From the NCBI GenBank assembly GCA_963805625.1, contig CAWDVE010000019.1, positions 128,001-192,000 of the forward strand: 64,000 bases of DNA. Reading direction: 5' to 3'. This document shows positions 9,654 through 59,972 of this stretch, one piece after another. Numbering within the stretch: position 1 is the stretch's first letter; every line of letters starts with the position of its first letter. The notes beneath the pieces were generated by a model, which worked only from the letters and a program-made list of their open reading frames with translations, made no database searches and was not told where the DNA came from. Source of the DNA: an uncultured Candidatus Rokubacteria bacterium (GTDB lineage Bacteria > Methylomirabilota > Methylomirabilia > Rokubacteriales > DASRDR01). The translations under genes were made by a program, and so were the position numbers.

Positions 9654-11639
9654 ATGACCATCGACCGGGTCACCCTCGAGATCCTGCGGAACCACTACCA
9701 GGCCGTCGTCGAGGACATGGCGCGCATCATGGAGCGCACCGCCTACACGACGTTCGTCAAGGAGACGGCGGACTTCTCGACCGGCCTGGTCTCGACCGGC
9801 GGGGAGTACGTGGCCTATCCGTGGAACCTGGGGGCGTCGTCGTACCTCGGCCTCAACATGGCCCAGACGCTCGGCTACTTCGACCACTACGACGAGGGCG
9901 ACATCGTCATCTGCAACGACGCCTACCTGTCGGGGCCGCTGTGCACCCACCTGCCCGACGTCCACATCCTCCGCCCCATCTTCCACGGGGGCCGCATCAT
10001 CTGCTGGGGCTACGCCTTCGTGCACTCCTCCGACATGGGCGGCGCGGTGCCGGCCAGCGTGTGGCCGCGCGCCACCGAGATCTTCCAGGAGGGGCTCCGG
10101 CTCCGGCCCACGAAGCTCTATCGGGGCGGCGTGCTCCAGGAGGACGTCAAGAACCTCATCGGCGACAACTGCCGCATCCCCGACACGAACTGGGGCGACA
10201 TCAAGGCGATGGTGGCGGCGGTGAGCTCGTGCGATCGCCGCGTGCAGGAGATGGTGGAGAAGTTCGGGCTCGCCACGGTCGTGGAGGGGATCGACGCCGT
10301 CCTCGACTATGCGGAGCAGCGGGCGCGGGCGGCGATCCGGAAGATCCCCGACGGGACCTACCGCTTCACGGAGTACATGGAGGACGACCTCCGCTCGGAG
10401 GTGCCGATCCGCCTCCAGGTGAGCCTGACCATCGAGGGGGACTCGATCCATCTCGACTTCACGGGCACGGACCCCCAGGTGGGCTCGGCTCTCAACATCG
10501 CTAGCCACGGTGTGACGCACCCTTTCCTGTGCCAGGCGATCAACGCCTACCTGGTGACGGACGACCCCGGCATCCCCAAGGCCTCCAGCATCCTTCGGCC
10601 GGTGCGCGTGACGGCGCCTCCCGGCACCATCGTGAACGCCCAGTTCCCGGCGCCGATCGGCGTGCGCTACGGGACGGTCCTGCGGGTGTTCGACGCGGTG
10701 CTCGGGGCCTTGGCTCAGGCGCTTCCCGGGCAAGTTCCGGCGGCCCCGGCGGGCGCGATCTCTCCGGTGGTGGCCTCGATCCTCGATCTCCGGACCGGGC
10801 AGCGCCAGGTCCAGGTGGTGGAGCCCATGCTGGGCGGCGGCGGGGGTCGGCCGACCATGGACGGGCTGGGCGGCGCCGATTCGACGTCGGGCTTCCTCAG
10901 GAACACGCCGGTGGAGAGCATCGAGGCCGAGGTGCCGATCGTCATGCGGCGCTACCATCTGATGCCGGACACGGGGGGCGCGGGGGAGCACCGGGGCGGG
11001 CTCGCCGTTCGCCTCGACTTCCAGGTGTTCCACCCGCACGCCATCGTGACGGCGCGGGGGATGGAGCGCTTCCGCCTGGAACCCTGGGGCGTCGCCGGCG
11101 GCCGCGCCGGCACCGCGGGCAGCTGCGTCGTCAACCGCGACACGCCGCGGGCGCGCGACATCGGCAAGGTCGACGTGCTCCACCTCGAGCCCGGTGACGT
11201 GGTGAGCATCTTCTCGCCCAGCGGCGGGGGCCATGGCGACCCGCGCCGGCGGGACCCCGCGCGGGTGCGTGACGACGTGCGGGCCGGCTGTCTGAGCGTG
11301 GAGCGGGCCCGGGAGGCGTACGGCGTGGCGATCGTGGCCGGCGAGGTCGACACGGCGGCGACCGCCCGGCGCCGCGCGACCATGGCGCCGCCTCCGGCCG
11401 GCGAATTCGACTTCGGCGCCCGGCGCGCCGAGATGGAGCGCCGCTGGCCGCCGGCGATCCAGGACGCCGCCGCGCGGGTCCTGGACCGGGTGCCGGCAGC
11501 GGTGCGCGACTGGGGCAAGCACCAGATCTACGATCGGATCCAGGCGATCGCGGCTGAGCGCCCGCCCACGCCGGCCGATGTCGACACGGTCTGGGCCGAC
11601 ATCCGGGCGCGCCTGACGCGCGCGCTCGGCGAGACGTGA
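9654..11639 (+). CDS. hydantoinase B / 5-oxoprolinase family subunit (copy 1)
   Basis: THLPD, HSSDMGGAVPAS, EIFQEG, DFTGT, NTPVESIE, GGGHGDP. Confidence 0.95.
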   Translation: MTIDRVTLEILRNHYQAVVEDMARIMERTAYTTFVKETADFSTGLVSTGGEYVAYPWNLGASSYLGLNMAQTLGYFDHYDEGDIVICNDAYLSGPLCTHLPDVHILRPIFHGGRIICWGYAFVHSSDMGGAVPASVWPRATEIFQEGLRLRPTKLYRGGVLQEDVKNLIGDNCRIPDTNWGDIKAMVAAVSSCDRRVQEMVEKFGLATVVEGIDAVLDYAEQRARAAIRKIPDGTYRFTEYMEDDLRSEVPIRLQVSLTIEGDSIHLDFTGTDPQVGSALNIASHGVTHPFLCQAINAYLVTDDPGIPKASSILRPVRVTAPPGTIVNAQFPAPIGVRYGTVLRVFDAVLGALAQALPGQVPAAPAGAISPVVASILDLRTGQRQVQVVEPMLGGGGGRPTMDGLGGADSTSGFLRNTPVESIEAEVPIVMRRYHLMPDTGGAGEHRGGLAVRLDFQVFHPHAIVTARGMERFRLEPWGVAGGRAGTAGSCVVNRDTPRARDIGKVDVLHLEPGDVVSIFSPSGGGHGDPRRRDPARVRDDVRAGCLSVERAREAYGVAIVAGEVDTAATARRRATMAPPPAGEFDFGARRAEMERRWPPAIQDAAARVLDRVPAAVRDWGKHQIYDRIQAIAAERPPTPADVDTVWADIRARLTRALGET

Positions 11640-11707
11640 CGGGCCAGGTGACCTTCCGCCACCACACGGACGAGGCCAACATTCGCCAAGACTCGGTGGA
11701 GGTGAAC

Positions 11708-12910
11708 ATGAAGACGCGGGCACGCTTCCTCGCGATCCTCGGACTGGCCGTGCTGACACTGACCCTCGGGGCCGCGTCGGCCGGGGCCGACAACCTGCAA
11801 GGGATCAGCGACACCACCATCAAGATCGGCAACATCGGACCGTACACGGGCGATGCCTCGAGCTTCAGCGCGCTGAACTACGGGCCGATGGCGTACTTCC
11901 GGTACGTCAACAGCCAGGGCGGCGTTCACGGCCGGAAGTTCGAGATCGTCACCGCCGACGACGCCTGCAAGGAGACGACCGGCATCGCGGCGGCCAAGAA
12001 GCTCATCTACCAGGACAAGGTGTTCATGCTCCTGGTGCACCCTTGCAGCGGGGTCGCGATGGCGGCCAAGCCGACGGTCGTCGAGGAAGGGCTGCCCTGG
12101 ATCGGGGTCTCGGCCAACCCGAAGCTGACGACGCCGACCGTCCCCAACATGTTCCACGTCACGTACACCGGCATCTACTCGGGCCGGGCCATGGCCCGGT
12201 TCGCGCTGTCCAAGCCCAACGCCAAGAAGGTCGTCCTGGTCGCCCACACCAACGACTGGGCCAAGGGCTATTGCGACCCCGCCACGGAGTTCATGAAGGA
12301 GCAGGGCGTCGAGCCCCTGATGAACCTGGCCCTCGAGCGGGGCTCGACCGACGCGACCGCCCAGTCGCTCCGGATCAAGACCGCCAACGCGGACTTCGTC
12401 CTCGGCTGTCTCTACGAGGCGGAGCTGGCGATCCTCCTGCGGGACCTCCACAAGTACGGGGCCACGGTGCCGGTCATCGGCGCGCTGGGGGCCGACTTCG
12501 AGAGCACCCACAAGCGCGTGAACAACCCGGCCGCGGTGAAGAACTTTTACCTGCCGTACCAGTTCAAGGCCCCGATGGGCAGCCCGGAGATGAAGAAGTG
12601 GGAAGAGATGTTCGTGAAGTACCTGGAGAAGAGCGAGCTGCCCGAGAACGGGATCCCGACCAACTTCTACTACTTCGGGCTGCCGACCGCCATCGCCACC
12701 GTCGAGGCGTTCAAGCGGGCCGGCCCCCAGCCGTCGCGCGAGAAGTTCATCGCGGCGATGGAGACCCTGAAGGACTTCGACACCGGCGTGCTGGCGGACA
12801 AGGTGACGATCACCCGCGAGAACCACGTCGGCGTCCAGAACATGTACGCGGTCGGCCTGAACGAGCAGGGCAAGCAGACGGTGTTCTCGGCCTGGGGGAA
12901 GCCGCAGTAG
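11708..12910 (+). CDS. branched-chain amino acid-type ABC substrate-binding protein
   Basis: signal peptide, GISDTTIKIG, NSQGGVHGRK, DDAC; followed by livHMGF-like genes. Confidence 0.9.
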   Translation: MKTRARFLAILGLAVLTLTLGAASAGADNLQGISDTTIKIGNIGPYTGDASSFSALNYGPMAYFRYVNSQGGVHGRKFEIVTADDACKETTGIAAAKKLIYQDKVFMLLVHPCSGVAMAAKPTVVEEGLPWIGVSANPKLTTPTVPNMFHVTYTGIYSGRAMARFALSKPNAKKVVLVAHTNDWAKGYCDPATEFMKEQGVEPLMNLALERGSTDATAQSLRIKTANADFVLGCLYEAELAILLRDLHKYGATVPVIGALGADFESTHKRVNNPAAVKNFYLPYQFKAPMGSPEMKKWEEMFVKYLEKSELPENGIPTNFYYFGLPTAIATVEAFKRAGPQPSREKFIAAMETLKDFDTGVLADKVTITRENHVGVQNMYAVGLNEQGKQTVFSAWGKPQ

Positions 12911-12948
12911 CGAGCGGATCGCGGCAAGGCTGACACCCGGCGATCGCC

Positions 12949-13818
12949 GTGCTGCCGCAGCTCGTCGTGAGCGGCCTCGCCCAGGGGGTGGTCTACGCCC
13001 TCGTCGCACTGTCCATGACCATGGTCTACCGGGCCACGACGGTCGTGAACTTCGGCCACGGAGACCTGGTCATGGGCGGCGCGTTCGTCGTCTACGTGCT
13101 CGTCGTCTACGCGCGCCTGCCGTACCTCCTCGGCGGCCTCCTGGCGCTCGCGATCCTGTTCGGCCTGGGCATGGCGCTCCACCAGGGGCTCATGCGGCGA
13201 ATCATGTCCGGCCCCCACCTCGCGATCGCCATGATGGCGCTCGCGGTGGGATACGCCCTCCGCGGCGGGGCGCGGATGCTATGGGGCAGGGAGGTGCTGC
13301 CGTTCCCGCGGATCTTCCCGGACCACGCGTGGGCCTTCGGGGACGTCGTGGTGACCAGCGACAACCTGATCGTCTCCGGCACGGTGCTCGGTCTCATGGC
13401 CGTGCTCTTCGTGCTGTTCAACGTCACGCGCACCGGGCGCCTGCTCCGGGCCGTCTTCCAGAGCCAGCGGGGCGCCGCGCTGGTCGGGCTGAACGTCGAC
13501 GCCGTGCACCGCCTCATGTGGGGCGCCGGGGCCGCCCTGGCGGCGCTCGGGGGCGTGCTGCTCGCGCCGATCACGCTTCTCTACCCCGACATGGGGGTGT
13601 GGGTGCTGGTCCGGGGATTCGCGGCCATGACGCTCGGGGGCTTCGGCACGCTCCACGGCGCCGTGCTGGGTGGGCTGGTCCTGGGCGTGGTGGAGCTGGT
13701 GCTCGGCGCATACGTGTCGACCGCGTTCATCGACATCTCGGCCTACGTGGTCGTGATTGCCGTCCTCCTGCTTCGTCCAGACGGGCTGTTCGGCCGGCAG
13801 GTGGTCGTCCGGGTCTGA
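12949..13818 (+). CDS. LivH-like ABC permease
   Basis: YALVALSMTMVY, VVNFGHGD, LGGFG, RPDGLFG. Confidence 0.92.
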   Translation: MLPQLVVSGLAQGVVYALVALSMTMVYRATTVVNFGHGDLVMGGAFVVYVLVVYARLPYLLGGLLALAILFGLGMALHQGLMRRIMSGPHLAIAMMALAVGYALRGGARMLWGREVLPFPRIFPDHAWAFGDVVVTSDNLIVSGTVLGLMAVLFVLFNVTRTGRLLRAVFQSQRGAALVGLNVDAVHRLMWGAGAALAALGGVLLAPITLLYPDMGVWVLVRGFAAMTLGGFGTLHGAVLGGLVLGVVELVLGAYVSTAFIDISAYVVVIAVLLLRPDGLFGRQVVVRV

Positions 13819-13825
13819 CCGGCGG

Positions 13826-14809
13826 ATGCCCGGCGCGGCGCCCGCTTCGCTCGTGACGCGCCCGGCTCTCGGGCGCTGGATCTTCCTGCTCGTCCCTCTG
13901 CTCGTCCTGCCCGTTCCGTTCCTCGTGAACCGCTACATCCAGTACGTCCTCAACCTGATCCTCGTGTACGTCTTCGTCGGCGTCGGCTTCAACATCGTCA
14001 TTGGCAACCTCGGGCAGCTGGCCTTCGCGAACGTCGCGCTCTTCGGCCTGGGCGCGTATGCGTCCGGCATCCTCGTCGTCCACGCGGGCTGGCCGTGGTG
14101 GACCACCGTCCTCCCCGCGGGGCTGGTCGGCGCCCTCGCCGGCGCCCTGGCCAGCTTGCCCGCCCTCCGCCGGATCCGGCTCTTCTACCTGGCGATCATG
14201 ACGATGGCATTCGGGGAGCTGATGCGGTGGATCTACATCCGGGCCGAGCCCTTGACCAACGGCTCGATGGGCCTGGCGGTGCCGCCCCCGGTGCTGCTCG
14301 GCGTGCGCCTGGCGAGCGACCGCAGCAAGTTCTACGTGTTCCTCGCGCTGACGGTGCTCGTCGTCGCGCTCACCTCGAGCCTGCTCCGCTCGCGGTTCGG
14401 CCGGGCGTTCATGGCGATCCGGGACAACGAGCTCGCGGCGGCGGCGGTGGGGATCCCGACCGACCGCTACTTCGTCCTCGCGTTCGCCTGGAGCGGGTTC
14501 GTGGTCGGCCTGGGGGGCGCTATGTACACGGCGCTGGTTGGCCACGTCACGCCGGAGGCGTTCAACCTGCTCGAGCTGATCCTCCACTTCGCCGTGGTGA
14601 TGGTCGGCGGGCTGGCCAGCCTGGCCGGCTCGGTGATCGGCGCCGTCGTGCTCACCACGACGCCCGAGCTGTTCCGGAGCTTCCCCGGGATCCAGGAGCT
14701 GGTGCTCGCGCTCTTGATCATCGTCGTCCTCCTGTGCCTGCCCCGCGGGCTCGTGAGCCTGCTCGCCCGGCGCCTGCCGCTGTTCCGCGAGCGGTACTAC
14801 CGGGAGTAG
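13826..14809 (+). CDS. LivM-like ABC permease
   Basis: GQLAFAN, GLGAY, FGRAFMAIRDNELAA, VGGLAS, PRGL. Confidence 0.92.
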   Translation: MPGAAPASLVTRPALGRWIFLLVPLLVLPVPFLVNRYIQYVLNLILVYVFVGVGFNIVIGNLGQLAFANVALFGLGAYASGILVVHAGWPWWTTVLPAGLVGALAGALASLPALRRIRLFYLAIMTMAFGELMRWIYIRAEPLTNGSMGLAVPPPVLLGVRLASDRSKFYVFLALTVLVVALTSSLLRSRFGRAFMAIRDNELAAAAVGIPTDRYFVLAFAWSGFVVGLGGAMYTALVGHVTPEAFNLLELILHFAVVMVGGLASLAGSVIGAVVLTTTPELFRSFPGIQELVLALLIIVVLLCLPRGLVSLLARRLPLFRERYYRE

Positions 14810-14811
14810 CG

Positions 14812-15570
14812 GTGGCGCTCCTCGATCTGGCCGGCATCACCGTGCGCTACGGCGGGCTCACCGCGGTCGCGGGGGTCTCGTTCCGCGTCGAGCCCGGCGA
14901 GGTGCGGGCCATCATCGGGCCGAACGGCGCCGGCAAGACGTCGCTGTTCAATGCGGTGACCGGGCACGCGCCGCTGAGCGCGGGGGCGATCAGCTTTCGG
15001 GGCGTCCGGATCGACGGCCTGGCCCCGCACGTGGTGTCGACGAAGGGCGTTCGCCGGACGTTCCAGAACGGGGGACTCTTCGGCGAGCTGACCGCGCTGG
15101 AGAACGTGCTGGCCGGCCTTCACACGGAGGTGCCAAGCAGCTTCTTCGGCGTCCTGTTCGGGCTGCCGGCGGCGCGGGCGGTCGAGCGGGCGGCCACCGC
15201 CCGGGCCCGCCAGCTGCTCGACCTGATGGGCATCGGGCACCTCGCGGACCAGCCGGCCCGGGACCTGTCGGGCGGCCAGCAGCGGATGGTCGAGATCGTG
15301 CGCGCGCTGGCGACGCGCCCGCCGCTGCTTCTCCTCGACGAGCCGGCGGTCGGGCTGGCGCCGGCCGTGCGCGAGCATCTGCTCGGCGTCATCCGCCGGC
15401 TCGTGCGCGAGGAGGGGATCGCGGTCATCGTGATCGAGCATGCCATCGAGTTCGTGATGAGCGTGTCGGATTCGATCGTGGTCCTCAACGAGGGCAAGGT
15501 CATCGCCGAGGGGACCCCGTCGGAGGTGCGGAAGAACCGCGAGGTGCTGGAGGCCTATCTTGGGCACTAG
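14812..15570 (+). CDS. LivG-like ABC ATPase
   Basis: Walker A GPNGAGKT, LSGGQQ, LLLDEP, EAYLG; GTG start inside the long ORF 14095..15570. Confidence 0.92.
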   Translation: MALLDLAGITVRYGGLTAVAGVSFRVEPGEVRAIIGPNGAGKTSLFNAVTGHAPLSAGAISFRGVRIDGLAPHVVSTKGVRRTFQNGGLFGELTALENVLAGLHTEVPSSFFGVLFGLPAARAVERAATARARQLLDLMGIGHLADQPARDLSGGQQRMVEIVRALATRPPLLLLDEPAVGLAPAVREHLLGVIRRLVREEGIAVIVIEHAIEFVMSVSDSIVVLNEGKVIAEGTPSEVRKNREVLEAYLGH

Positions 15571-15577
15571 TGGGGCC

Positions 15578-16339
15578 ATGAGCGGGGCCACGGGCGGAGA
15601 CAACGAGGCGTGGGCTGACCGGGCCACGAGCGATGAGCGGCCGGTCTTGGCCGTCGAGGGCCTGGTGGCCGGCTACGGGCCCATCCGGGTCCTGCGGGGT
15701 GTGGACTTCCTGGTGCGCCGGGGCGAGGTCGTCGCCCTGCTCGGGGCGAACGGGAGCGGCAAATCGACCGCACTCAACACGATCAGCGGCTTCATCCGGC
15801 CGATGGCGGGCCGGATCCGGCTAGACGGCCAGGAGATTGCGGGCCGCCAGCCTCACTGGACCTTCCGGCGCGGTATCGTGCAGGTGTCCCAGGGCCGGGA
15901 TCTATTTCCCGACATGTCGGTCGAAGACAACCTCACGCTCGGGGCCGCGGTGCGTGGCGACGTCCAGACGGGCCTCCCGCGGACCTACGAGCTGTTCCCA
16001 CGCCTGGCGGCCCGCCAGCGCCAGAGCGTGCGCTCGCTGTCCGGAGGCGAGCAGCAGATGGTGGCGATCGGCCGGGCGCTGATGAGCGACCCGCGGCTCC
16101 TGCTCCTCGACGAGCCGTCGGGTGGCCTCGCCCCGGTGTTCGTCGCGGAGATCGGGCGCATCGTCGAGCGCCTCAAGGCGGCCGGGACGACGGTGCTGAT
16201 GGTCGAGCAGAACGTCCGGCTGGCCTTCGCCGTCGCGGACCGGTTCGTCGCGCTCCGCGACGGCGTGGTGCTGGCTCACGGGCCGGTGAGCGACCTCCGC
16301 GGCGCGTACGAGGACCTCGTGCGCCGCATCTACCTGTAG
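15578..16339 (+). CDS. LivF-like ABC ATPase
   Basis: GANGSGKS, LFPRL, LSGGEQQM, LLLDEPS, VEQN. Confidence 0.92.
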   Translation: MSGATGGDNEAWADRATSDERPVLAVEGLVAGYGPIRVLRGVDFLVRRGEVVALLGANGSGKSTALNTISGFIRPMAGRIRLDGQEIAGRQPHWTFRRGIVQVSQGRDLFPDMSVEDNLTLGAAVRGDVQTGLPRTYELFPRLAARQRQSVRSLSGGEQQMVAIGRALMSDPRLLLLDEPSGGLAPVFVAEIGRIVERLKAAGTTVLMVEQNVRLAFAVADRFVALRDGVVLAHGPVSDLRGAYEDLVRRIYL

Positions 16340-16354
16340 CGAGGCGTGCGACCG

Positions 16355-16882
16355 ATGCCCTCGAGTTCCGAGGCCGACAACGAGTACCGTGTGCGCCCGG
16401 CCACGCTGGACGACATCCCGGTCCTCGCGTACCAGCGATGCGCGATGTTCGTGGCGACGGGGGCGATCGATCGCGAGGCCACCGCGGAGCTCGATGCGGC
16501 CGAGCGCCGGTATCTCGCCCAGGCTATGCCCGCCGGCACCTTCGTGGCCTGGCTGGTGGAGCACGGGGGCCGGATCGTAGCGGGCGGGGGTCTCCAGATC
16601 CGCACGCTCCAGCCGAGGCCGGGGTTCGTGCGGGGGGAGCCCGAAGGGCTCGTGGTGAGCATGTGGACCGAGCCGTCGCATCGCAGGCAGGGCCTGGGGA
16701 ACCGGGTCATGGACGCCATCCTCCAGTGGTGTCGGACCCGCCGGGTCCGGCGGCTGACGCTTCACGCGTCTCCCGAGGGGCGGCCGCTGTACGAGCGCTT
16801 CGGCTTCCGGCCGACAAACGAGATGCGCCTGGAGCTTGACCTGAGCGACGCGCTCGGCGGCGAGACGAGGCGCCAGCCATGA
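16355..16882 (+). CDS. GNAT family N-acetyltransferase
   Basis: motif A HRRQGLG and LHASPEGRPLYERFGF. Confidence 0.9.
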   Translation: MPSSSEADNEYRVRPATLDDIPVLAYQRCAMFVATGAIDREATAELDAAERRYLAQAMPAGTFVAWLVEHGGRIVAGGGLQIRTLQPRPGFVRGEPEGLVVSMWTEPSHRRQGLGNRVMDAILQWCRTRRVRRLTLHASPEGRPLYERFGFRPTNEMRLELDLSDALGGETRRQP

Positions 16883-16949
16883 GCCCGCGACGGTCGATCG
16901 GTCATCGCCCGATGTCTCACCCGTGGCGAGGGACGGGAGGTCCGGATCT

Positions 16950-18899
16950 ATGTTCGAGCACCTGCTGAGTCCGCTCAGGGTTGGCCGGCTCACGCTGCGC
17001 AGCCGCGTCCTCATCACCGCGCACGCGACGAACTTCGTCGACGCCGACGGGCTGCCCGACGCGCGGGCCGTCCACTACTACGCCGAGCGCGCGAGGGGCG
17101 GCGTCGGGCTCATGGTAACCGGCGCCTCCAGCGTTCACCCCTCGAGCCCGCGCGTGCGCGGCGTGGTCAACGCCCACGATCCCCGGGCCGGCCAGGCCTG
17201 GCGCGCGATCGCCGATGCGGTGCACGCCCAGCAGGGCCGCATCCTGGTCATGTTGACCCACATGGGGCGCGTGGGCCGGATGCCCGATATGCGGCCGCTG
17301 GTGGCACCGTCGCCGCTGATCGACGGGAACTTCCACCAGGCGGTGCCGCACGCCCTGGACACGCGGGAGATCGCCGAGATCGTCGCCGCCTTCGCCGAGG
17401 CCGCCGCGCGCGTGCGCGCCAGCGGGATGGACGGCGTCGAGCTGCAGGGCGCCCATGGATATCTCATCGCCCAGTTCCTCTCACCGCTCTCGAACCGCCG
17501 GACCGACGGTTACGGCGGCGACTTCGCCGGACGGTTACGCTTCGGCCTGGAGGTCGTGGACGCCGTGCGCCGGGCGGTCGGCCGCGACTACACGCTCGGA
17601 ATCCGGCTCTCCGCCGACGAGCTGGTCCCCGGGGGCATCGCGCTGGAGGAGTCACAGGAGGTCGTGCGGCGGCTCACCGCGACCGGCCACCTCGACTTCA
17701 TCGACATCAGCGCCGGGACGGACTCGGACCTGATGAGCCTGGCCGAGCACATCCCGTCCATGTACTTCCCGCCCGCCAACCTGGTCCACTTCGCGGCGGC
17801 GATCAAGCCGGTGACGCGGCTCCCGGTCTTCTGTGCGGGGGCGATCCGCGATCCCGCCGTCGCCGAGGGAATCGTCGCGAGTGGCCAGGCCGACATGGTG
17901 GGCATGACCCGGGCGCACATCGCGGACCCCCACGTGGTGCGAAAGCTCCGTGAGGGACGGGCCGAGGACATCCGCCGGTGCATCGGCTGCATGCAGGCGT
18001 GCCTCGAGGCGCTGGCCAACGGCCTGCCGATCGGGTGCGTGTACAACCCGGTCACGGGGCGCGAAGGGGAGTGGGCTACGCTCGAGCCGGCCCCGCGGCA
18101 GCGGCGCGTGGTGGTCGTGGGCGGCGGCCCGGCGGGCCTGGAGGCGGCGCGGGTCGCCGCGCTCCGTGGCCACCGCGTGGTGCTCCTCGAGGCGTCGGCG
18201 CGGCTCGGCGGCCAGCTTCACCTGGCGGCGAGGCTCCCGAAACGCGAGAACTTCCTGGAGATCGTCAGCTTCCTCTCGCGGCAGACTGCAAAGCTCGGCG
18301 TCGAGGTGAGGCTCGGCTGTCGCGCCGATGTCGACATGGTCCGGGCGGAGCGTCCTGATACGGTCGTGGTGGCGACCGGAAGCCGTCCCACGATCCCGGA
18401 CGGGCTGTCCGGCGTGCCGGGGTCGCTCGTTCATGTGGCGGACGTTGTGAGCGGCGAGGCCCGCGTGGGCGACCGCGTCCTGGTCGTGGATCAGGACGGC
18501 CACCTGCGAGGGTCGGGGGTGGCTGACCTCCTCGCTGGCCAGGGTCGCCGGGTCTCCATCGTGAGCGAGCAGCTCTACGTGGGGCTGGGCATCGACCTGA
18601 AGACGCTCTACCCCTTGCAGCGCCGACTGCGCGAGCAGGGTGTCGAGATGCTGCCGTCGACCCGGTTCGTCGGCTGGGACGCCGGGCGCCCGCTGGTCGC
18701 CGACGTCTTTACCGGGGCCGAGCGGACGCTGGCCGACGTCGATACGGTGGTCTGGGCCGCCGCGGGCCGCGTGGTCGCCGAGCTCGTCGAGCCGCTTCGC
18801 TTGGCCGGGCTCCCGGTCCACGCGGTCGGTGACTGCGTCGCGCCCCGGCGAGTCGAGCACGCCGTCCACGAGGCCCACGCGGTCGCCCGCGCGCTCTAG
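16950..18899 (+). CDS. NADH:flavin oxidoreductase (OYE/FadH-like, FMN + 4Fe-4S + FAD)
   Basis: YYAERARGG, GAHGYLIAQF, NRRTDGYGG, CIGCMQAC...C cluster motif, GGGPAG. Confidence 0.93.
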   Translation: MFEHLLSPLRVGRLTLRSRVLITAHATNFVDADGLPDARAVHYYAERARGGVGLMVTGASSVHPSSPRVRGVVNAHDPRAGQAWRAIADAVHAQQGRILVMLTHMGRVGRMPDMRPLVAPSPLIDGNFHQAVPHALDTREIAEIVAAFAEAAARVRASGMDGVELQGAHGYLIAQFLSPLSNRRTDGYGGDFAGRLRFGLEVVDAVRRAVGRDYTLGIRLSADELVPGGIALEESQEVVRRLTATGHLDFIDISAGTDSDLMSLAEHIPSMYFPPANLVHFAAAIKPVTRLPVFCAGAIRDPAVAEGIVASGQADMVGMTRAHIADPHVVRKLREGRAEDIRRCIGCMQACLEALANGLPIGCVYNPVTGREGEWATLEPAPRQRRVVVVGGGPAGLEAARVAALRGHRVVLLEASARLGGQLHLAARLPKRENFLEIVSFLSRQTAKLGVEVRLGCRADVDMVRAERPDTVVVATGSRPTIPDGLSGVPGSLVHVADVVSGEARVGDRVLVVDQDGHLRGSGVADLLAGQGRRVSIVSEQLYVGLGIDLKTLYPLQRRLREQGVEMLPSTRFVGWDAGRPLVADVFTGAERTLADVDTVVWAAAGRVVAELVEPLRLAGLPVHAVGDCVAPRRVEHAVHEAHAVARAL

Positions 18900-19028
18900 C
18901 GACGGACCCTTGTCCACGCTGTCGTTCTACCTGGTGCTCGGTAGGAGCGTGAGACACCGGGCCTGACGCCTCGGCCGAGTCCGGGGCGAACATGAGACTC
19001 CGGCTGGGCTGAGGGGAGAGAGACGGTT

Positions 19029-19721
19029 CTACGCGTGGCGCTCGTGAGCCGCTCGCTCCACGTCCTCGCGGACGAGCAGGCCGATCAGCTCTCCGGCCGA
19101 GGTCGTCACGGGCGCGTTCGGGAGATCGTGCTGGGCCATGTGCTCCGCGATCTCGGCGATGGCAACGTTCGGTCGGAAGGTGCTCGGTCCGGGGCGCATG
19201 GCGGACTCGGCCGTGAGGTCTCCTTCCCGGCCAAGCTGCTCGGCGCGGAGAAGCCCCATGACGATCCGCGCCTCGTTGACCACGACGCAGGCGTCCCACC
19301 CCACCGCTCGGGCGCGCTCCCGCACGTCCCGGAGGGATTCTTCGAGATGGCACATCGGCACGTCCCGGCGCGCGATCGTCCCCGCGGTGGGCCGGCCTGA
19401 CGCCTCGCCCTCGGTGGGGAGTCCGGCTGCCATCCAGTCCGACTTGCCCGCCGGGTAGTCGTACACGTCGAGGAACCCGAGGCTCTCGAGCCGCCACGCG
19501 GCTCGTGGACTCAGGTCTCAGGCGGAGTCCCAGCAGTAGACGACGACCGGGCGGTCGGGATCCAGGGCAGCCCTGGCCTCCGCGTCGATCTTCCTAAGGG
19601 GGAGGTGGATCGCGCCCGGAAGATGCCGCTCGTCGAACGCTTCCCTGGGCAGCACCTCGACGAGTTGCGCACCCTCCGCCACCAGCCGCCGCACGTCCTC
19701 GCGTCCGATATGGGTCGGCAT
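19029..19721 (-). CDS. rhodanese-CBS domain protein with in-frame UGA (probable selenocysteine), 230 aa
   Basis: ORFs 19518..19721 and 19029..19466 share a frame; reading through TGA 19520-19518 gives YCWDSA-U-DLSPRAAWRLESLGF...AGKSDW, which completes the rhodanese fold (HLPGA, G.W.AAGLP), followed by a CBS pair. Confidence 0.85.
19474..19517 (-). promoter_or_regulatory. bacterial SECIS-like stem-loop directly 3' of the UGA
   Basis: lower stem GACCUGAG/CUCGGGUU, internal loop, upper stem CGAGCCGC/GCGGCUCG starting 12 nt after the UGA, apical loop GUG. Confidence 0.75.
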
Positions 19722-19937
19722 GTCTCTTCCTCCAGGTCGCCCGTTCCCCTCAAGCGGTACCGCACCTTCCGGTCGAACCCGGGCGCTCGGTCACGGGAGC
19801 CCTCGTCCGTTCGTCGCGATCGCACGCAGCTCATCGGCGAGACCCGTCAGCTGCGCCCCGGCGGTCATCCACTGCTATCATAGCGCCGGCGTCCGGACCT
19901 CCCCACCGGCGTGCCGGCACATCGAGGAGGCGCGAGC

Positions 19938-21992
19938 GTGCAGATGGGCGTGGACATCGGCGGCACCTTCACCGACATCGTCGCGCTCGGCGATGATGGC
20001 CGGCTCCACCTGACCAAGGTGCCGACCACTCCGAAGGACCTGCTCCGCGGCCTCGCCGCCGCCGTCCGGGGGGTGCTCGCGCTGGCCGGGGCGGAGGCGG
20101 GCGGCGTCCGGCGCTTCATCCACGGGACCACCGTCGCCACGAACGCCATCCTCGAGCAGACCGGCGCTGTCACCGGCGTGTTCATGACCGCGGGCTTCGA
20201 GGACGTTCTCGAACTCGGCCGGCAGAAGCGCTCCCGCATGTACGACCTCGACATGGATGCGGAGACGCCCGCGTTCCTGGCCCCGCGGCGCCGCCGGGTG
20301 GGGATCCGCGAGCGGCTCGACGCCCGCGGCCGGGTCCTGGTGCCGCTGGACGAGGCCCAGGTGCGAGCGGAGGCAGCCAGGCTCCGGGACGAGGGGATCC
20401 AGGCGCTCGCCGTCTGCTACCTCTTCTCGTTCCTCGATCCCGCGCACGAGCGCCGGACACGCGAGCTCATCCGCGAGGTCGCCCCGGGCGTCGCGATCTC
20501 GCTCTCCTCCGAGGTCGACCCCACCTTCCGCGAGTACGAGCGGCTCTGCGTGACCGCCTTCGACGCGTATCTCGGGCCCCTCGTCGGCCGTTACCTGGCC
20601 GGCCTCAGCGAGACGCTGCGGCGCCTCGGCGTGACCGCGGTGCCGCAGATCATGCGGTCCCGGGGGGGGATCGTGTCGGCGGCCGTCGCCAGGCGTCAGC
20701 CCGTCACCCTCTTCCTGTCCGGCCCAGCGGGCGGCGTCATCGGGGCGCAGTACGCGGCCGAGCGCTCCGGCGTACGGGACTTCATCTCGCTCGACATGGG
20801 CGGGACCAGCAACGACGTGAGCGTGGTCCACGGGGGCCAACCTGTCGTGGCGGCCGAAGGGCGGATCGGACCCTATCCGGTGCGGACACCGATGGTGGAC
20901 GTCAACACGATCGGCGCCGGGGGCGGGAGCATCGCGTGGTTGGATGCCGCCGGCGGCCTCCGGGTGGGTCCCCGGAGCGCGGGGGCGGAGCCGGGGCCCG
21001 CCTGCTACGGCCGGGGCGGGGACCGGCCGACCGTGACCGACGCGAGTGTCCTGCTCGGGTTCCTCGACCCCGCGAGCTTCGCGGGGGGATCGATCCGGCT
21101 CGACGTCCGCGCCTCGGAGACCGCGGTCGCGACGGTGGCCGGGCCCCTCGGGCTCGACCTCGTCGAGGCCGCCGCCGGCATCCACCGCGTGGTCAACGCA
21201 CGGATGGCCGACCAGATCCGGCTCATGACGATCCAGCGTGGGCACGATCCGCGAGGATTCACGCTGGTGCTCCTCGGCGGGGCGGGCCCGGTGCACGGCG
21301 CGTCCCTGGCGGAGGAGCTTGGCCTGCGGGACGTGCTCGTCCCGGAGGCGCCCGGCGTACTCTCGGCGCTCGGCCTCCTCGCCGCGGCCGTCGAGCACCA
21401 CCACGCCCGGACGCACCAGAGCGTGGTCGAGTCGGCGGACCTCGCCGCGATCGACGCGCTGCTCCGAGATCTCGACGCCACGGGCCGCGCCCAGATGCGC
21501 GACGAGGACGTGCCGCCCGACGCGGTAGAGGTGGCCTACACCGCGGATATGCGATACGTCGGCCAGGCGTACGAGCTTCCGGTGCCGATCCGGGCGCCGC
21601 TCGCCGCGGCGGATCTCGCGGGCGTCGAGGTCGCCTTCCACGCCGTCCACGAGCGTGTCTACGGCTACGCGCGCGCCGGCCAGCCCGTGGAGTTCGTCAA
21701 CCTCCGCGCCGTCCACACCTACCGTCTGCCGGCGCCCCGGATCCGACCGTCCGACCGGGCGCGCGGGACGGCGGCCGCCGCCCGGGTGGCCGAGCGCCCG
21801 GTGCACTTCGCGCCGGCGGGCTTCGTGCGGACGCCAATCTACGCGCGCCCCCGTCTGCCGCTCGGCGCCGAGCTCTCCGGGCCGGCCATCGTCGAACAGC
21901 CCGATACCACAACTGTCGTGCCGCCGGGCTGGGCGGCGCGCGTGGAAGAGTCGGGGAACCTCCTGCTCCGGCGCAGCCAGGGAGAGTCGTGA
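19938..21992 (+). CDS. hydantoinase A / 5-oxoprolinase family subunit (copy 2)
   Basis: DIGGTFTD, HGTTVATN, SGPAGG, DMGGTS, SAGAEPGPACY. Confidence 0.95.
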   Translation: MQMGVDIGGTFTDIVALGDDGRLHLTKVPTTPKDLLRGLAAAVRGVLALAGAEAGGVRRFIHGTTVATNAILEQTGAVTGVFMTAGFEDVLELGRQKRSRMYDLDMDAETPAFLAPRRRRVGIRERLDARGRVLVPLDEAQVRAEAARLRDEGIQALAVCYLFSFLDPAHERRTRELIREVAPGVAISLSSEVDPTFREYERLCVTAFDAYLGPLVGRYLAGLSETLRRLGVTAVPQIMRSRGGIVSAAVARRQPVTLFLSGPAGGVIGAQYAAERSGVRDFISLDMGGTSNDVSVVHGGQPVVAAEGRIGPYPVRTPMVDVNTIGAGGGSIAWLDAAGGLRVGPRSAGAEPGPACYGRGGDRPTVTDASVLLGFLDPASFAGGSIRLDVRASETAVATVAGPLGLDLVEAAAGIHRVVNARMADQIRLMTIQRGHDPRGFTLVLLGGAGPVHGASLAEELGLRDVLVPEAPGVLSALGLLAAAVEHHHARTHQSVVESADLAAIDALLRDLDATGRAQMRDEDVPPDAVEVAYTADMRYVGQAYELPVPIRAPLAAADLAGVEVAFHAVHERVYGYARAGQPVEFVNLRAVHTYRLPAPRIRPSDRARGTAAAARVAERPVHFAPAGFVRTPIYARPRLPLGAELSGPAIVEQPDTTTVVPPGWAARVEESGNLLLRRSQGES

Positions 21993-23785
21993 TGGCGACG
22001 CGGGCCGTCGACCCGATCCTGCTGGAGGTCATCCGGAACCGGCTGGAGACGATCGCCGACGAGATGGAGCTGACGCTCCTGAAGAGCGCCGCCTCTCCGA
22101 TCGTGAAGGAGGGGCTCGACGCGTCCGCCGCCCTCTTCAATGTGCGCGGGGAGACGATTGCCCAGGCGGCGGCGATTCCCATCCACCTCGGGTGTCTCGA
22201 ACTCGCCGCCCGCCGGATCGTGCGGGCCTTCCCGCCGCAGACGATGGCGGAGGGGGACGCGTTCCTCCTGAACGACCCGTACGACGGCGGCACGCATCTG
22301 CCCGACATCACCCTGGCGGTCCCGGTGCTGGCCGACGGGCGCGTCGTCGCGCTGGCATGCACGATGTGCCACCACCAGGACGTCGGGGGCCGCACGCCGG
22401 GCAGCGTGCCGACGGACGCCACGGAGATCTACCAGGAGGGGCTCATCATCCCGCCGACTCGGTTGTTCCGCGGGGGCGCGCTTGATGAGAACCTGTTCGC
22501 CCTCCTCCGCCGCAACGTGCGCATCCCGGACGTGTTCACCGGGGACCTCATGGCCCAGGTGGCCGCGGGTCGCCTCGGCGGGATCCGCCTCAACGAGCTG
22601 TTCGTCCGCTACGGAACCGAGACCGTGCTCGGATACGTCGACGAGCTGCTCGAGCGCGCGGAGACCCTGACGCGCCGCGGAATCGAGGCCATTCCCGACG
22701 GGACCTACGCCTTCGCCGACTGGCTCGACAACGACGGGATCGACGACCGCCCGGTCCGGATCCAGGTGGCGGTGACCGTGCGAGGCTCGACGATGACCTT
22801 CGACTTCACGGGCACGAGTCCCCAGGTCCGCGGTCCGTTCAACTCGGTGCCCGCTTCCACTCTGTCCGCGGTCTACTACGCCGTGCGCGCCATCTCGGAC
22901 CCGACCGTTCCGAACAACGGCGGCTGCTTCCGGGCGGTCGACACGGTGCTGCCGCTCGGGAGCCTCGTCAATCCTCGGCCGCCGGCCCCGGTAAGCTGCC
23001 GCACGGCCACCATCAAGCGGATCGCCGACACCATCCTGGGCGCTCTCGTCAGGGCCCTCCCGCAGCGCATGCCGGCGGCCAGCTCCGGCACGCTCCTCGT
23101 GATGGCCTTCGGGGGGACAGATCCCGGGACGGGCCGCCCGTTCGTCGCCAGCGAGCTGGCCGCGGGCGGCATGGGCGCCCGCCCCGCGAAGGACGGCATC
23201 CACGTGGTTGAGACCGACGTGACTAACTGCATGAACATCCCTGTCGAAGCGCTCGAGATGAATTTCCCGCTCCGGGTGACCCGGGCCGGCCTGTGGACGG
23301 ACTCAGCCGGCGCGGGCGCGGCGCGGGGCGGCCTCGGGCTCGAGAAGGTCTTCGAAGCCACCGTCACCGACGTCACTGTCGCCCACCGCAGCGAGCGGTT
23401 TGCCTCGGCGCCGTGGGGGCTCTTCGGCGGCGGCCCGGCGCGGCGCGGGCGCGCCTTCCTCGTTCGGCGCGACGGGACCCGGGAGGAGGTGCCCTCCAAG
23501 AAGATGCTCGTGCTCCATCCCGGCGACCAGCTGTGGGAGTACATCCCGGGCGGCGCCGGCTGGGGGGACGCGCTCGAGCGCGATCCGGACCGGGTGCTCG
23601 CGGACGCGCTCGACCGTGCGATCTCGGTCGAGGCCGCCCGCGCCGAGTACGGCGTCGTCCTCTCACCAGACGGGACGGCCGTCGATCACGACGCGACAAA
23701 GGAGTGCCGCGACGCGATGCGCCGGGCCCGCGGGCCCATCCGCTGGGTTTTTGACCGGGGCGGCGAGCACGGCCGCGAGGGCTGA
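21992..23785 (+). CDS. hydantoinase B / 5-oxoprolinase family subunit (copy 2)
   Basis: NDPYDGGTHLPD, HHQDVGG, EIYQEG, NIPVEALE; TGATG coupling to the A subunit gene. Confidence 0.95.
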   Translation: MATRAVDPILLEVIRNRLETIADEMELTLLKSAASPIVKEGLDASAALFNVRGETIAQAAAIPIHLGCLELAARRIVRAFPPQTMAEGDAFLLNDPYDGGTHLPDITLAVPVLADGRVVALACTMCHHQDVGGRTPGSVPTDATEIYQEGLIIPPTRLFRGGALDENLFALLRRNVRIPDVFTGDLMAQVAAGRLGGIRLNELFVRYGTETVLGYVDELLERAETLTRRGIEAIPDGTYAFADWLDNDGIDDRPVRIQVAVTVRGSTMTFDFTGTSPQVRGPFNSVPASTLSAVYYAVRAISDPTVPNNGGCFRAVDTVLPLGSLVNPRPPAPVSCRTATIKRIADTILGALVRALPQRMPAASSGTLLVMAFGGTDPGTGRPFVASELAAGGMGARPAKDGIHVVETDVTNCMNIPVEALEMNFPLRVTRAGLWTDSAGAGAARGGLGLEKVFEATVTDVTVAHRSERFASAPWGLFGGGPARRGRAFLVRRDGTREEVPSKKMLVLHPGDQLWEYIPGGAGWGDALERDPDRVLADALDRAISVEAARAEYGVVLSPDGTAVDHDATKECRDAMRRARGPIRWVFDRGGEHGREG

Positions 23786-23794
23786 GGTTCCCGG

Positions 23795-25081
23795 ATGGAG
23801 CGCGCGTCGGACGTCGTCGTGATCGGGGGCGGGATCGTCGGGAGCGCGATCGCTTACCAGCTCGCCCGTCGCGGCGTGGGCGTGGTGCTGGTGGAGCGGA
23901 ACGAGATCGCAGGAGAGCAGTCAGGCCGTAACTGGGGGTTCGTGCGTCAGCAGGGGCGGGACCCGGCCGAAGTTCCGCTCATGATGGAAGCGAACCGCAT
24001 CTGGCGCGGCCTCGAGCAGGAGCTCGGGGCCGACATCGAGTGGGTCCAGGGCGGGAACATGGCGCTCGCCGCGGCCCCCGAGCGCCTCGCCCTGTTCGAA
24101 CGCTGGCTCGAGACGGCGCGGGAGGCCGGGCTCGACACTCGCGTGCTCAGCTCGCGAGAAGTCCAGGCGCTCCTGCCCGGCATGGCGCGCACCTGGCTCG
24201 GGGGGCTCTACACGGCGAGCGACGGCCACGCCGAGCCCGCGAAGGCGACCCACGCGCTGGCCGACGCGGCCGTCAAGCAAGGCGCGCGCCTCTACCCGCG
24301 CTGCGCCGCCGTGGGCATCGAGACCGAGGGCGGCCGGGTAAGCGGCGTCCGGACGGAGGGCGGCACGGTCCGGGCGCGGACGGTGGTGTGTGCGGCCGGC
24401 GCCTGGTCGGCCTGGCTCGTTCGCCCCCTCGGGCTCCACCTCCCCCAGCGCTGGGTGCGGGCGACCGTGGCGCGGACCACGCCGGCGCCGCCCCTCACGC
24501 GCGCGGGAGTGTGGGGACCGGCCGTGTCGTTCCGCCAGCGCCGGGACGGCACGCTGAATCTCGCCGCGGGCGGCGCCGCCGACCACGACATCACTCTCCA
24601 GTCGTTCCGGCACGCGCGGCTCTTCTTCCCGAACTACTGGAAGAACCGGAAGCTCTTCCGCTTCCACGTCGGCCGGCCGCTCCTGCGGGATCTGGCTGGG
24701 CTCCTGCCGGGGTCCTGGGCGCGTCGGCACCCGCTGACGTGGGACCGACACACGGAGCCGGTGCCGAACGCGGCGAAGGTGCAGAGGAGCCTCGCCGAGC
24801 TGCGCGCGCTGTACCCGGCGATCGGTGCGCTCGAGATCACGCGCAGCTGGGCGGGCCACATCGATGCGACTCCGGACGCCCTTCCGGTCGTGGGTGAGGC
24901 CGGGCCGGCCGGTCTCGTTCTGGCGACCGGGTTCACCGGCCACGGCTTCGCGATGGGGCCGATCGTCGGGCGGCTCGTCGCCGAGCTCGTCACCGACGGC
25001 AGGCCCTCGCTCGATCTCCGCGCATTCCGGTTCTCCCGCTTCGTCGAGGGCGCCGTCGGCACGCCGCGCAGCGTGCTTTGA
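23795..25081 (+). CDS. FAD-dependent oxidoreductase (D-amino acid oxidase/DadA family)
   Basis: GGGIVG, EQSGRNWGFVRQQGR, WAGHID.TPD, GFTGHGF. Confidence 0.92.
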   Translation: MERASDVVVIGGGIVGSAIAYQLARRGVGVVLVERNEIAGEQSGRNWGFVRQQGRDPAEVPLMMEANRIWRGLEQELGADIEWVQGGNMALAAAPERLALFERWLETAREAGLDTRVLSSREVQALLPGMARTWLGGLYTASDGHAEPAKATHALADAAVKQGARLYPRCAAVGIETEGGRVSGVRTEGGTVRARTVVCAAGAWSAWLVRPLGLHLPQRWVRATVARTTPAPPLTRAGVWGPAVSFRQRRDGTLNLAAGGAADHDITLQSFRHARLFFPNYWKNRKLFRFHVGRPLLRDLAGLLPGSWARRHPLTWDRHTEPVPNAAKVQRSLAELRALYPAIGALEITRSWAGHIDATPDALPVVGEAGPAGLVLATGFTGHGFAMGPIVGRLVAELVTDGRPSLDLRAFRFSRFVEGAVGTPRSVL

Positions 25082-59300: not shown

Positions 59301-59972
59301 TTCTACTTCTGCATCAACCTGCTCGAGCTGATGCAGAACGTCTATCTCGACCTGAACCTGGAGGAGGAGCACAACCATCCGGACAACCGGGGGTGGATGA
59401 ACCTCTTCAAGCACTGGTCCTGGGCGACCATGCTCCGGGCCACCTACGCGATCTGCTGTTCGACCTTCGGGGCGCGGTTCCAGACGTTCTGCGCCCGGCG
59501 TCTGGATCTCGTGCCGGGAGAGCCTAGGGTGGTGTCGCGCAGCGTGAACGGGCCGGTGAGCGGAATCCTCGACGAGGCGCACCGGCGGGGGGAACTCAAC
59601 TTTTGGGAGGTCAAGGTCATCGGCGATTGCGAGTCGGCGGGCGTGCCCTTCGACGAGATCCACCTGCTCCGGCTGAGGGTCGAGGATCCCAGCCGGGCCG
59701 CGGCCGATCCCGACGCGGAGGCGGCGCTCGAGTTCACTTTCGGCTTCGCGCTGACCCATCAACGAGAGTTCGTCTACTTCCGCGTGCAGGACCACTTGCG
59801 TCGGATGGGCCTGGCCCGCGACGCTCTCCTGAGACTGTGCAAGCGCCGCTACACGGAGGTGTCGAAGCATGCTCGGGAGGATGCCGATCCGGAGGGATGG
59901 CGACGCTTCCGGGCGCTGTTGACCTCGGCGCTGAGCGAGATCAGCGGCCTCTCGAGCGCCACCCGCGAATAG
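56316..59972 (+). CDS. large integral-membrane cPLA2/patatin-like phospholipase with a C-terminal GNAT-like extension
   Basis: GLAFSGGGIRSA, YLSTVSGGGY, YLSDGGHFENLG, FPHESTSDQWF; many TM helices between the catalytic Ser and Asp; RVQDHLRRMGLA near the C-terminus. Confidence 0.85.
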   Translation: MTTPAEGFTLEDVLREERDFLRGPADKDAPRNTQDEPRHPDEFLGLAFSGGGIRSATFNLGVLQALSELKLLKEFDYLSTVSGGGYIGSWLSAWIHRAGIDTVEQQLSMKDHPHEEPKEVTFLRSYSNYLTPRTGILSTDTLAAVVTYLRNLILNLSIVLLCLTVALLLPRMIAWAGQFLQAQSDVLLVGAALGLGVAVFFINLNLASQLPYSQSNRDKRSLGSRWKAPRYATRTAVVAWIVLPLVLAALALSFWLAGPAPPLAQALLETDWPTLRLDAEIIGGMIFTIGLFWFCALRIARVLREPGDRPTWRWRLGALLIGVLIGLVGLVAFQEIMFARTDPGSSRLWWATVWGLPGLLGVFGLAVVFVIGVSGRQFEEDSREWWSRLGGVLFGVAVGWLVVAGLAVHAPPWVMRVTRLAQGLSVAWLVTTIVGVRAAMSGSTGKPGSISWRERLAMITPYVFLAGLLIALAFGIHAALAAWHGESTFTFEGNDYFSDITKWLSLGGLGAPFLFSAALAAFFSWRIDVNVFAFHMFYRNRLVRCYLGASNPQRANHPFTGFDGGDSVPMKDLQQRPYHLVNAALNITRGTRLAWQERKAASFIASPIFCGYELRDDDRKAARTYQRTEHYLAEENEARKRRRTKAWKRRNRSASDEPDPGELKLGLGTALAVSGAAASPNQGYHSSPAVAFLMTVFNVRLGWWLQNPAQLRQWRQMGPRWGIMYLLSELLGMADDSSKYVYLSDGGHFENLGIYELVRRRCRFIVACDASMDPGFEFEDLGNAIRKCQVDLGVSIEIDAQSIRPDLATQRGLAHCAVGTIRYGRAGGQAAGGTHAADGYLLYIKPSITGSEPSDVLQYRVAHAEFPHESTSDQWFGESQFESYRKLGHHITRLVFRSAGITEPRGRAASERPGRERMFVALKERWYPSSAAVKASFSRHADRLNTLKVALRRDDSLRFLDAQIYPEWDELMRGREAPHRSGLSLPPSAREARAGFYFCINLLELMQNVYLDLNLEEEHNHPDNRGWMNLFKHWSWATMLRATYAICCSTFGARFQTFCARRLDLVPGEPRVVSRSVNGPVSGILDEAHRRGELNFWEVKVIGDCESAGVPFDEIHLLRLRVEDPSRAAADPDAEAALEFTFGFALTHQREFVYFRVQDHLRRMGLARDALLRLCKRRYTEVSKHAREDADPEGWRRFRALLTSALSEISGLSSATRE

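Follow-up and report, generated by a model that had tools for sequence, protein, structure and literature searches.

The window, a stretch of 64,000 nt from an uncultured Candidatus Rokubacteria bacterium (GCA_963805625.1, contig CAWDVE010000019.1, positions 128,001 to 192,000), carries on its reverse strand a rhodanese-CBS gene that translation with table 11 splits into ORFs of 67 and 145 aa. The original prediction had taken the two fragments for one frame interrupted by a TGA; its coordinates are right, and read-through of the TGA, which lies in the context YCWDSA-TGA-DLSPRAA, gives 230 codons from an ATG at 19721 to a TAG at 19029 to 19031. No signal peptide is visible in the sequence of the 230-aa protein. 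The features of the locus are as follows:

19029..19721, minus strand: rhodanese-CBS gene, 230 aa, one in-frame TGA (sequence, ORF calls, Pfam)
19729..19733, minus strand: GGAGG ribosome-binding site, 7 nt 5' of the ATG (sequence)
19407..19721, minus strand: rhodanese domain, residues 1 to 105 (PF00581, E 1.3e-13; AlphaFold model matches)
19533..19535, minus strand: Cys63 (TGC), at the position that is usually catalytic in rhodaneses; three actinobacterial relatives have TGA instead (UxxxxU)
19518..19520, minus strand: in-frame TGA, codon 68, predicted selenocysteine, between invariant Asp65 and Asp69
19487..19505, minus strand: SECIS core, an 8-bp upper stem (+13..+20 with +24..+31), GUG loop, G at +21
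19474..19517, minus strand: predicted lower stem (+1..+8 with +37..+44), formed here but poorly conserved among relatives
19032..19397, minus strand: CBS pair, residues 109 to 230 (Pfam CBS 173 to 225; model matches)

An independent, DNA-derived contig covering 19350 to 19781 differs from the window at four positions and leaves the TGA unaffected; the assembled reads keep the TGA at codon 68 and show no sense codon there. Contigs from two RNA libraries overlap the gene in part, one at 19534 to 19699 with one difference and the others from relatives, and they do not demonstrate transcription of the gene. No Rfam family matched between 18800 and 20000 at E up to 1, and a promoter scan around the gene returned no sites. 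A terminator-like match inside the start of the gene, on the opposite strand, was taken as chance. The nearest named relatives are uncultured Rokubacteria at 90%, 82%, and 76% identity, and four protein matches from Cupriavidus/Pseudomonadota share 28 to 31% identity. Standard gene callers do split genes of this family, as had been anticipated: among the best 120 protein matches, 50 are full-length proteins and 70 are C-terminal fragments beginning downstream of the TGA.

We examined codon 68 in homologs from several sources. Our search of the phylum covered 201 genomes, 14 of which match; 15 matches span the Sec site, the window's own copy included, and all 15 of these Rokubacteria matches have TGA. 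The actinobacterial sample consisted of 401 genomes from the phylum to which an Actinomycetes MAG belongs; 49 of them match, and at the 29 readable sites among 30 loci examined we found 26 TGA, 2 TGC, and 1 CGA. A pattern scan of metagenomes gave 110 TGA, 9 TGC, 1 TGT, and no TGG among the 120 matches listed; the pattern had TGN at the Sec site and excluded UxxxxU, and its fixed codons may favor TGA genes. The profile-based counts (15/15 and 26/29) are free of this codon bias. The 50 full-length proteins among the best 120 protein matches have Cys (40), Trp (8), Arg (1), or Ser (1) at this position, and Cys is the usual alternative to TGA. Homologs at the DNA level carry TGA or Cys, as the original prediction had expected, with no TGG among the 120 matches listed, and none of the outcomes that it had named as evidence to the contrary was observed. 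In a quick tree, Sec and Cys labels interleave, with at least eight changes forced by starred branches; we claim no direction of change between Sec and Cys because the tree was rooted at its midpoint and its Cys rows of protein-database origin are unchecked at the DNA level.

The machinery for selenocysteine insertion bears on whether the TGA is recoded. The genome has selA, selC, and selD with scores over the cut-offs. We observed that selC, selA, and selB form one cluster (G000:C21:223591-228224, minus strand), with selD elsewhere. The search for sel genes suggested at the outset thus succeeded for selA, selC, and selD, and found selB frameshifted in this assembly: compared with three relatives, a C/G run lacks one base. 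The selB frames of 3/3 Rokubacteria relatives are intact (641 to 654 aa), and the frameshift is likely an assembly error. Among the relatives that carry the rhodanese-CBS gene, 12 of 13 have selA. In the actinobacterial sample, selA is present in 42 of 45 carriers vs 25 of 35 non-carriers, an enrichment that is weak because selA is common in this sample.

It is very unlikely that the TGA is a genuine stop, an error, or a codon for Trp, which would make the locus a split gene or pseudogene, or that the strain is unable to insert selenocysteine through a broken selB. The Trp, Arg, and Ser residues in 10 of the 50 full-length database homologs and the selB frameshift would fit such an explanation. 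However, the eight Trp forms share a single source (JGI), and TGG occurs in none of the 120 DNA matches listed, so these forms are probably TGA translated with another code. The genome encodes a tRNA-Sec(UCA) and one tRNA-Trp(CCA), TGA terminates neighboring genes, and the first fragment alone would amount to half a domain. The break in selB is a single base, and selD of the same genome has its own in-frame TGA and SECIS. We conclude with high confidence that the TGA at codon 68 is read as selenocysteine; judged from its sequence, the locus is a real gene that is almost certainly recoded.

The original prediction described a two-tier SECIS hairpin behind the TGA. Its geometry forms here as described, but conservation is confined to the upper stem. 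Starting at the UGA, 50 nt fold with an energy of -27.1 kcal/mol (z -2.62), and 3 of 200 shuffles fold equally well. The bSECIS model, as given in the legend of Fig. 2 of PMC13188914, calls for a loop of 3 to 9 nt, a stem of 4 to 16 bp, a G in the first two loop places, a distance of 16 to 37 nt from the UGA, and an MFE of at most -7.5. The upper hairpin agrees with this model on all four criteria, with a 3-nt GUG loop, 8 bp, 20 nt spacing, and -27.1 kcal/mol. The selD gene of this organism has a SECIS built in the same way (12 nt, 8 bp, and a 3-nt loop beginning with G).

To follow the hairpin through the family, we used the 120 metagenome matches listed, from which the removal of three that were too short and the merging of duplicates left 100 TGA genes and 9 Cys genes. 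Among these listed matches, a G at +21, a synonymous third position, is present in 100/100 TGA genes vs 4/9 Cys genes, and +15 is only A or G. At least seven of the eight pairs plus G+21 are found in 99/100 TGA genes vs 5.8% of synonymous recodings. A C-G pair has changed to U-A together with an Arg-to-Gln change in five genes of two separate clades. In the same listed matches, 97.3% of cells are paired in the upper stem vs 75.6% in the lower stem, two pairs of which hold in about 40%. Slid controls reached 26 to 46% vs 86.4%. Column shuffles reached the observed values in 14, 5, and 7 of 500 for three measures and in 216 and 428 of 500 for two others; since most columns show little variation, covariation by itself is modest. 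Codons +1 to +7 give no evidence in their first two letters, which the metagenome search pattern fixed. The upper stem-loop is the SECIS element, and the lower stem is incidental. Locus L191 (G298) has CGA (Arg) at the Sec codon and retains the hairpin and G+21, which is probably a recent loss of Sec.

The rhodanese fold runs past the TGA and is followed by the CBS pair, in line with the original prediction: Pfam Rhodanese (PF00581) matches residues 9 to 98, across the TGA, with 51.7 bits vs a cut-off of 22.2, and an AlphaFold model built from 40 sequences agrees (pLDDT 95.3, pTM 0.83). Residues 1 to 105 of the model match 3tp9 (Z 18.2) and 3nhv, BH2092 (Z 17.6), and no listed structure spans both the rhodanese and the CBS parts. 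Cys63, Asp65, Asp69, Ser71, and Arg73 are invariant in 40/40 Cys-form rows, Asp65 and Asp69 are present in all 29 profile-found actinobacterial loci, and His33 is retained in 100/103 locus-derived members. Positions 63 and 68 have only Cys or Sec in nearly all rows. Both loop residues probably react because three actinobacterial genes have Sec at both (UxxxxU). These double-Sec genes, L208 (G221) and L213 and L214 (G442), have the loop YU-HDGL-U and a C-terminal CxxC tail, form one clade with 100% support, and adjoin ArsR, MerR, MerB, or DF genes. Alignment to 1yt8 makes the loop two residues longer than common rhodanese loops, a length that BH2092 shares.

No NCBIfam model reached its cut-off on the 230-aa protein, with 17 weak matches; the thiosulfate/mercaptopyruvate sulfurtransferase models GlpE and PspE are far below theirs, and the protein has Cys63. 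The loop of Cdc25/ACR2-type phosphatases or arsenate reductases is C-x5-R. We rejected this type of activity for the rhodanese-CBS protein, in which Cys63 to Arg73 is C-x9-R and position 69 is Asp in 40/40.

The C-terminal part of the model is a tandem CBS fold, which superimposes on CBSX2-AMP with Z 18.6 and an rmsd of 1.9 across 121 residues; CBSX and AcuB, both regulators, are its nearest CBS matches by fold. Thr181 is present in 102/103 and Arg183 in 103/103 locus-derived members. The canonical ribose-phosphate (nucleotide) motif of CBS domains is G-h-h-T/S-x-x-D. In this family the motif is half kept: Asp220 is found in 77/103 members, the first repeat has no Asp, and the T/S places are mostly Arg or hydrophobic, with T/S in neither repeat. 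Regulation by adenylate binding, which the original prediction had inferred, is not supported as stated; adenylate control via the CBS pair is possible. At least two His occur in the last 20 residues of 21/103 locus-derived members, the window's copy included, and these C-termini are possibly metal-binding tails. Longer fused forms are limited to two weak matches among 7993 candidates of 451 to 2000 aa; none of these candidates is a MerB fusion, which is weak evidence.

We surveyed the genes around members of the family, calling 253 ORFs in 97 loci, of which 148 were scanned. Among the matches listed, 80 metagenome loci have flanks, with MerB-like genes in nine, ArsR-type regulators in seven, and MerR in two. 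Recurrent neighbors in the family are DF thioredoxin-like, redoxin, Prx, MsrA, TrxR-like, and Cu-ATPase genes, and one second rhodanese and two DsrE-like genes also occur. The rhodanese-CBS gene is often alone or beside regulators, and no conserved partner gene was found in the scanned loci. In the actinobacterial sample, MerB lies within 1.5 kb of 5/57 gene copies vs 0.045 expected from 45 carrier genomes and 33 MerB matches, an enrichment that is inflated by kin and mobile cassettes. The MerB-adjacent cases are spread over several separate tree branches. At one locus, the rhodanese-CBS gene is preceded by merA-like, merT-like, merR, and two merB-like genes and followed by a third merB-like gene. 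No MerB is near 52/57 actinobacterial copies, and 25/45 carrier genomes have no MerB match. The scanned neighbors at 17 Rokubacteria loci include no MerB-like gene, and two of these loci have weak MerT-like matches. All MerB-like neighbors score 24 to 63 bits, below the MerB cut-off and the SaoL cut-off (140). The actinobacterial counts include the unpublished genomes G205, G252, G292, G324, and G539, which contribute none of the five MerB-adjacent cases and none of the three double-Sec genes.

The window's copy sits between flavin oxidoreductase and hydantoinase/oxoprolinase genes and has no MerB-like, MerR/ArsR, or thiol-redox neighbors. The flanks in the window (11636 to 25081) comprise an ABC transporter cluster and genes for a GNAT protein, an OYE-like flavin oxidoreductase, hydantoinase/oxoprolinase A and B, and a DAO-family oxidase; only the three closest relatives retain parts of this gene order. 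Several further observations were made at other loci. At L220, a MerB-like gene (G000:C10:1625592-1625972, minus strand) upstream of a two-domain sulfurtransferase-like gene contains a TGA in frame (SSFL-U-TRLNFF), followed after about 20 nt by a hairpin whose loop has GG; it scores below the MerB and SaoL cut-offs. In-frame TGA occurs in 13/40 MerB matches from 80 actinobacterial genomes (one in the unpublished G539). An upstream peroxiredoxin-like neighbor (L114:2020-2307, plus strand) with its own in-frame TGA (TAG-U) is likely, from its sequence, a second selenoprotein. At L028, a second rhodanese (G000:C10:514685-514966, plus strand) has an in-frame TGA at the catalytic place (VVLY-U-ACPHH, UxC), a signal-like N-terminus, and a weaker hairpin, and scores 46.8 bits vs 115 for NF041203. 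A remnant of the leader and the first ~25 codons of this rhodanese-CBS gene, with a two-base gap, lies near an ISL3 transposase (L030/L219, G000:C17 about 59324 to 59439, plus strand).

The fusion to a regulatory-type domain and the mercury-handling genes beside its relatives suggest a possible role in metal or redox defense. The reading we favor, and hold tentatively, is that Cys63 and the predicted Sec68, which share one rhodanese loop, may act as a thiol/selenol pair for soft-metal binding, e.g., of Hg(II), or for thiol-redox exchange. By the established route of Sec insertion, SelB would bind the hairpin and deliver Sec-tRNA to the UGA, very likely giving one selenoprotein of 230 residues. 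The pair would probably bind soft metals or exchange thiols under metal or oxidative stress, cycling between a reduced state and a selenenylsulfide or chelating the metal with the aid of Asp65 and Asp69. Neighboring thioredoxin-like proteins or MerA could re-reduce or unload it, and the CBS pair might conceivably tune activity or dimerization. MerB itself uses Cys96/Asp99/Cys159 (bioRxiv 10.1101/2022.07.06.499078).

A narrower proposal places the family, as a selenoprotein component, in the mercury/organometal resistance operons of soil Actinomycetota and Rokubacteria; its Cys/Sec (or Sec/Sec) loop would take Hg(II) from MerB-like lyases and pass it to MerA or sequester it, under CBS control. 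We regard this as unlikely, and prefer the general thiol/selenol pair because most copies have no MerB nearby and the window's copy lies among catabolic genes. A role in mercury resistance, if true, would be the first for a selenoprotein, since Haft and Gwadz report that their cataloguing turned up none (bioRxiv 10.1101/2022.07.06.499078).

The selenoprotein might alternatively be a carrier of sulfane sulfur or selenium, with a persulfide on Cys63, like that of classical rhodaneses, that Sec68 resolves, releasing sulfide or passing the sulfur or selenium on. The canonical fold, near the GlpE, PDO-rhodanese, and CoADR-RHD domains (Z 16 to 18), would suit such a carrier, as would the invariant Cys63, the conserved His33, and the presence of the same C-x4-U loop in form 1 selenoproteins of sulfur-respiring bacteria; a supply of sulfide could serve metal detoxification too, in line with the neighbors. 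Yet the loop is longer than in typical rhodaneses and has two invariant Asp, which are unfavorable for an anionic sulfur donor, and the neighbors are of the metal and thiol-redox kind rather than of sulfur metabolism, apart from the single second rhodanese and the two DsrE-like genes. We therefore rank a carrier below the thiol/selenol pair and consider it less probable. Lower still in our ranking, and rather improbable, is a non-catalytic sensor, in which oxidation or metal at Cys63/Sec68 would alter CBS packing or a CBS-bound adenylate and so signal to a partner. The model packs both domains in one confident arrangement, Thr181 and Arg183 are strongly conserved, the nearest CBS folds are regulators, and the gene is often solitary or beside regulators, all of which would suit a sensor. 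Against it stand the degeneracy of the nucleotide motif and the lack of a conserved partner gene in the scanned loci, and likeness of fold demonstrates no function.

Recognition of the family corrects a systematic annotation error, in which 70 of the best 120 database matches are "CBS domain" fragments behind the TGA, and gene callers hide it in roughly an eighth of the sampled actinobacterial genomes (49/401). A Sec site familiar from anaerobic, sulfur-respiring bacteria is now also recorded in common soil bacteria, where it sits in a new arrangement of domains. The protein is small, soluble, and well modeled, and its natural Cys/Cys, Cys/Sec, and Sec/Sec loop versions offer a test of the contribution of selenium. 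Should the link to mercury prove functional, selenocysteine would be connected with mercury resistance, for which the 2022 preprint catalogues no selenoprotein.

We compared the rhodanese-CBS protein with known selenoproteins and rhodaneses. Table 1 of PMC13188914 has 119 families with five rhodanese forms, and "CBS" does not occur in the part of that article available to us. The same source cites Deng et al. 2026 for 44,000 MAGs and one Methylomirabilota MAG with 63 selenoproteins. The Sec site is already known because rhodanese-like selenoprotein form 1 has the same C-x4-U-x2-S, a match that the original prediction did not mention. By eye, the loop and the place of Sec are the same: YCGGVT-U-VLSP in the form 1 representative WP_010941598.1 (PF00581, UxxS; PMC12013277 supplement), YCGGPT-U-RLSP in further members, and YCWDSA-U-DLSP here. 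The protein has the features of the form 1 class, namely, a PF00581 domain, one Sec, and the UxxS motif (U68-D-L-S71). Its architecture, as judged by eye, is not shared: form 1 representatives mostly have a signal-like N-terminus, at least two rhodanese repeats, and no CBS, whereas the rhodanese-CBS protein combines a single rhodanese domain with a CBS pair, lacks a signal stretch, and has the invariant Asp65/Asp69. Six motifs of the family gave no matches in four supplementary files of PMC12013277.

Other relatives are more distant. The loop region (residues 52 to 111) matches TsoB (NF045694, rhodanese/DsbD fusion-like, form 5, UxxxxU) at E 4.4e-7, and UxxxxU also occurs in the three double-Sec relatives. 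We rejected membership in TsoB (28.4 bits vs a cut-off of 805 for a 572-position model), given 230 aa, one Sec, and no DsbD-like part, and also membership in rhodanese_LYCAU (NF041203, form 3, CxU), for which the score is 21.1 bits vs 115 and the motif here is CxxxxU. BH2092 of Bacillus halodurans (PDB 3NHV/3O3W), a structural-genomics target, has a CWGPAC loop with the same C-x4-C spacing, and its rhodanese domain superimposes on the model with an rmsd of 1.6 to 1.9 A; it differs in being a stand-alone domain with Cys at both places and no CBS pair. SAO selenoproteins such as SaoL share with the family a Sec beside MerB-like organometallic chemistry but belong to a nine-gene locus of anaerobes, and rhodanese and CBS are not mentioned in the text that describes them (bioRxiv 10.1101/2022.07.06.499078). 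The literature we searched contains no description of a rhodanese-CBS selenoprotein, and recent large selenoprotein surveys may list it. The principle of UGA recoding in a rhodanese loop is not new, and the Sec site is of a known type. What is new is the CBS fusion, the Asp-flanked loop, and the link of the family to MerB-like, MerR/ArsR, and thiol-redox genes.
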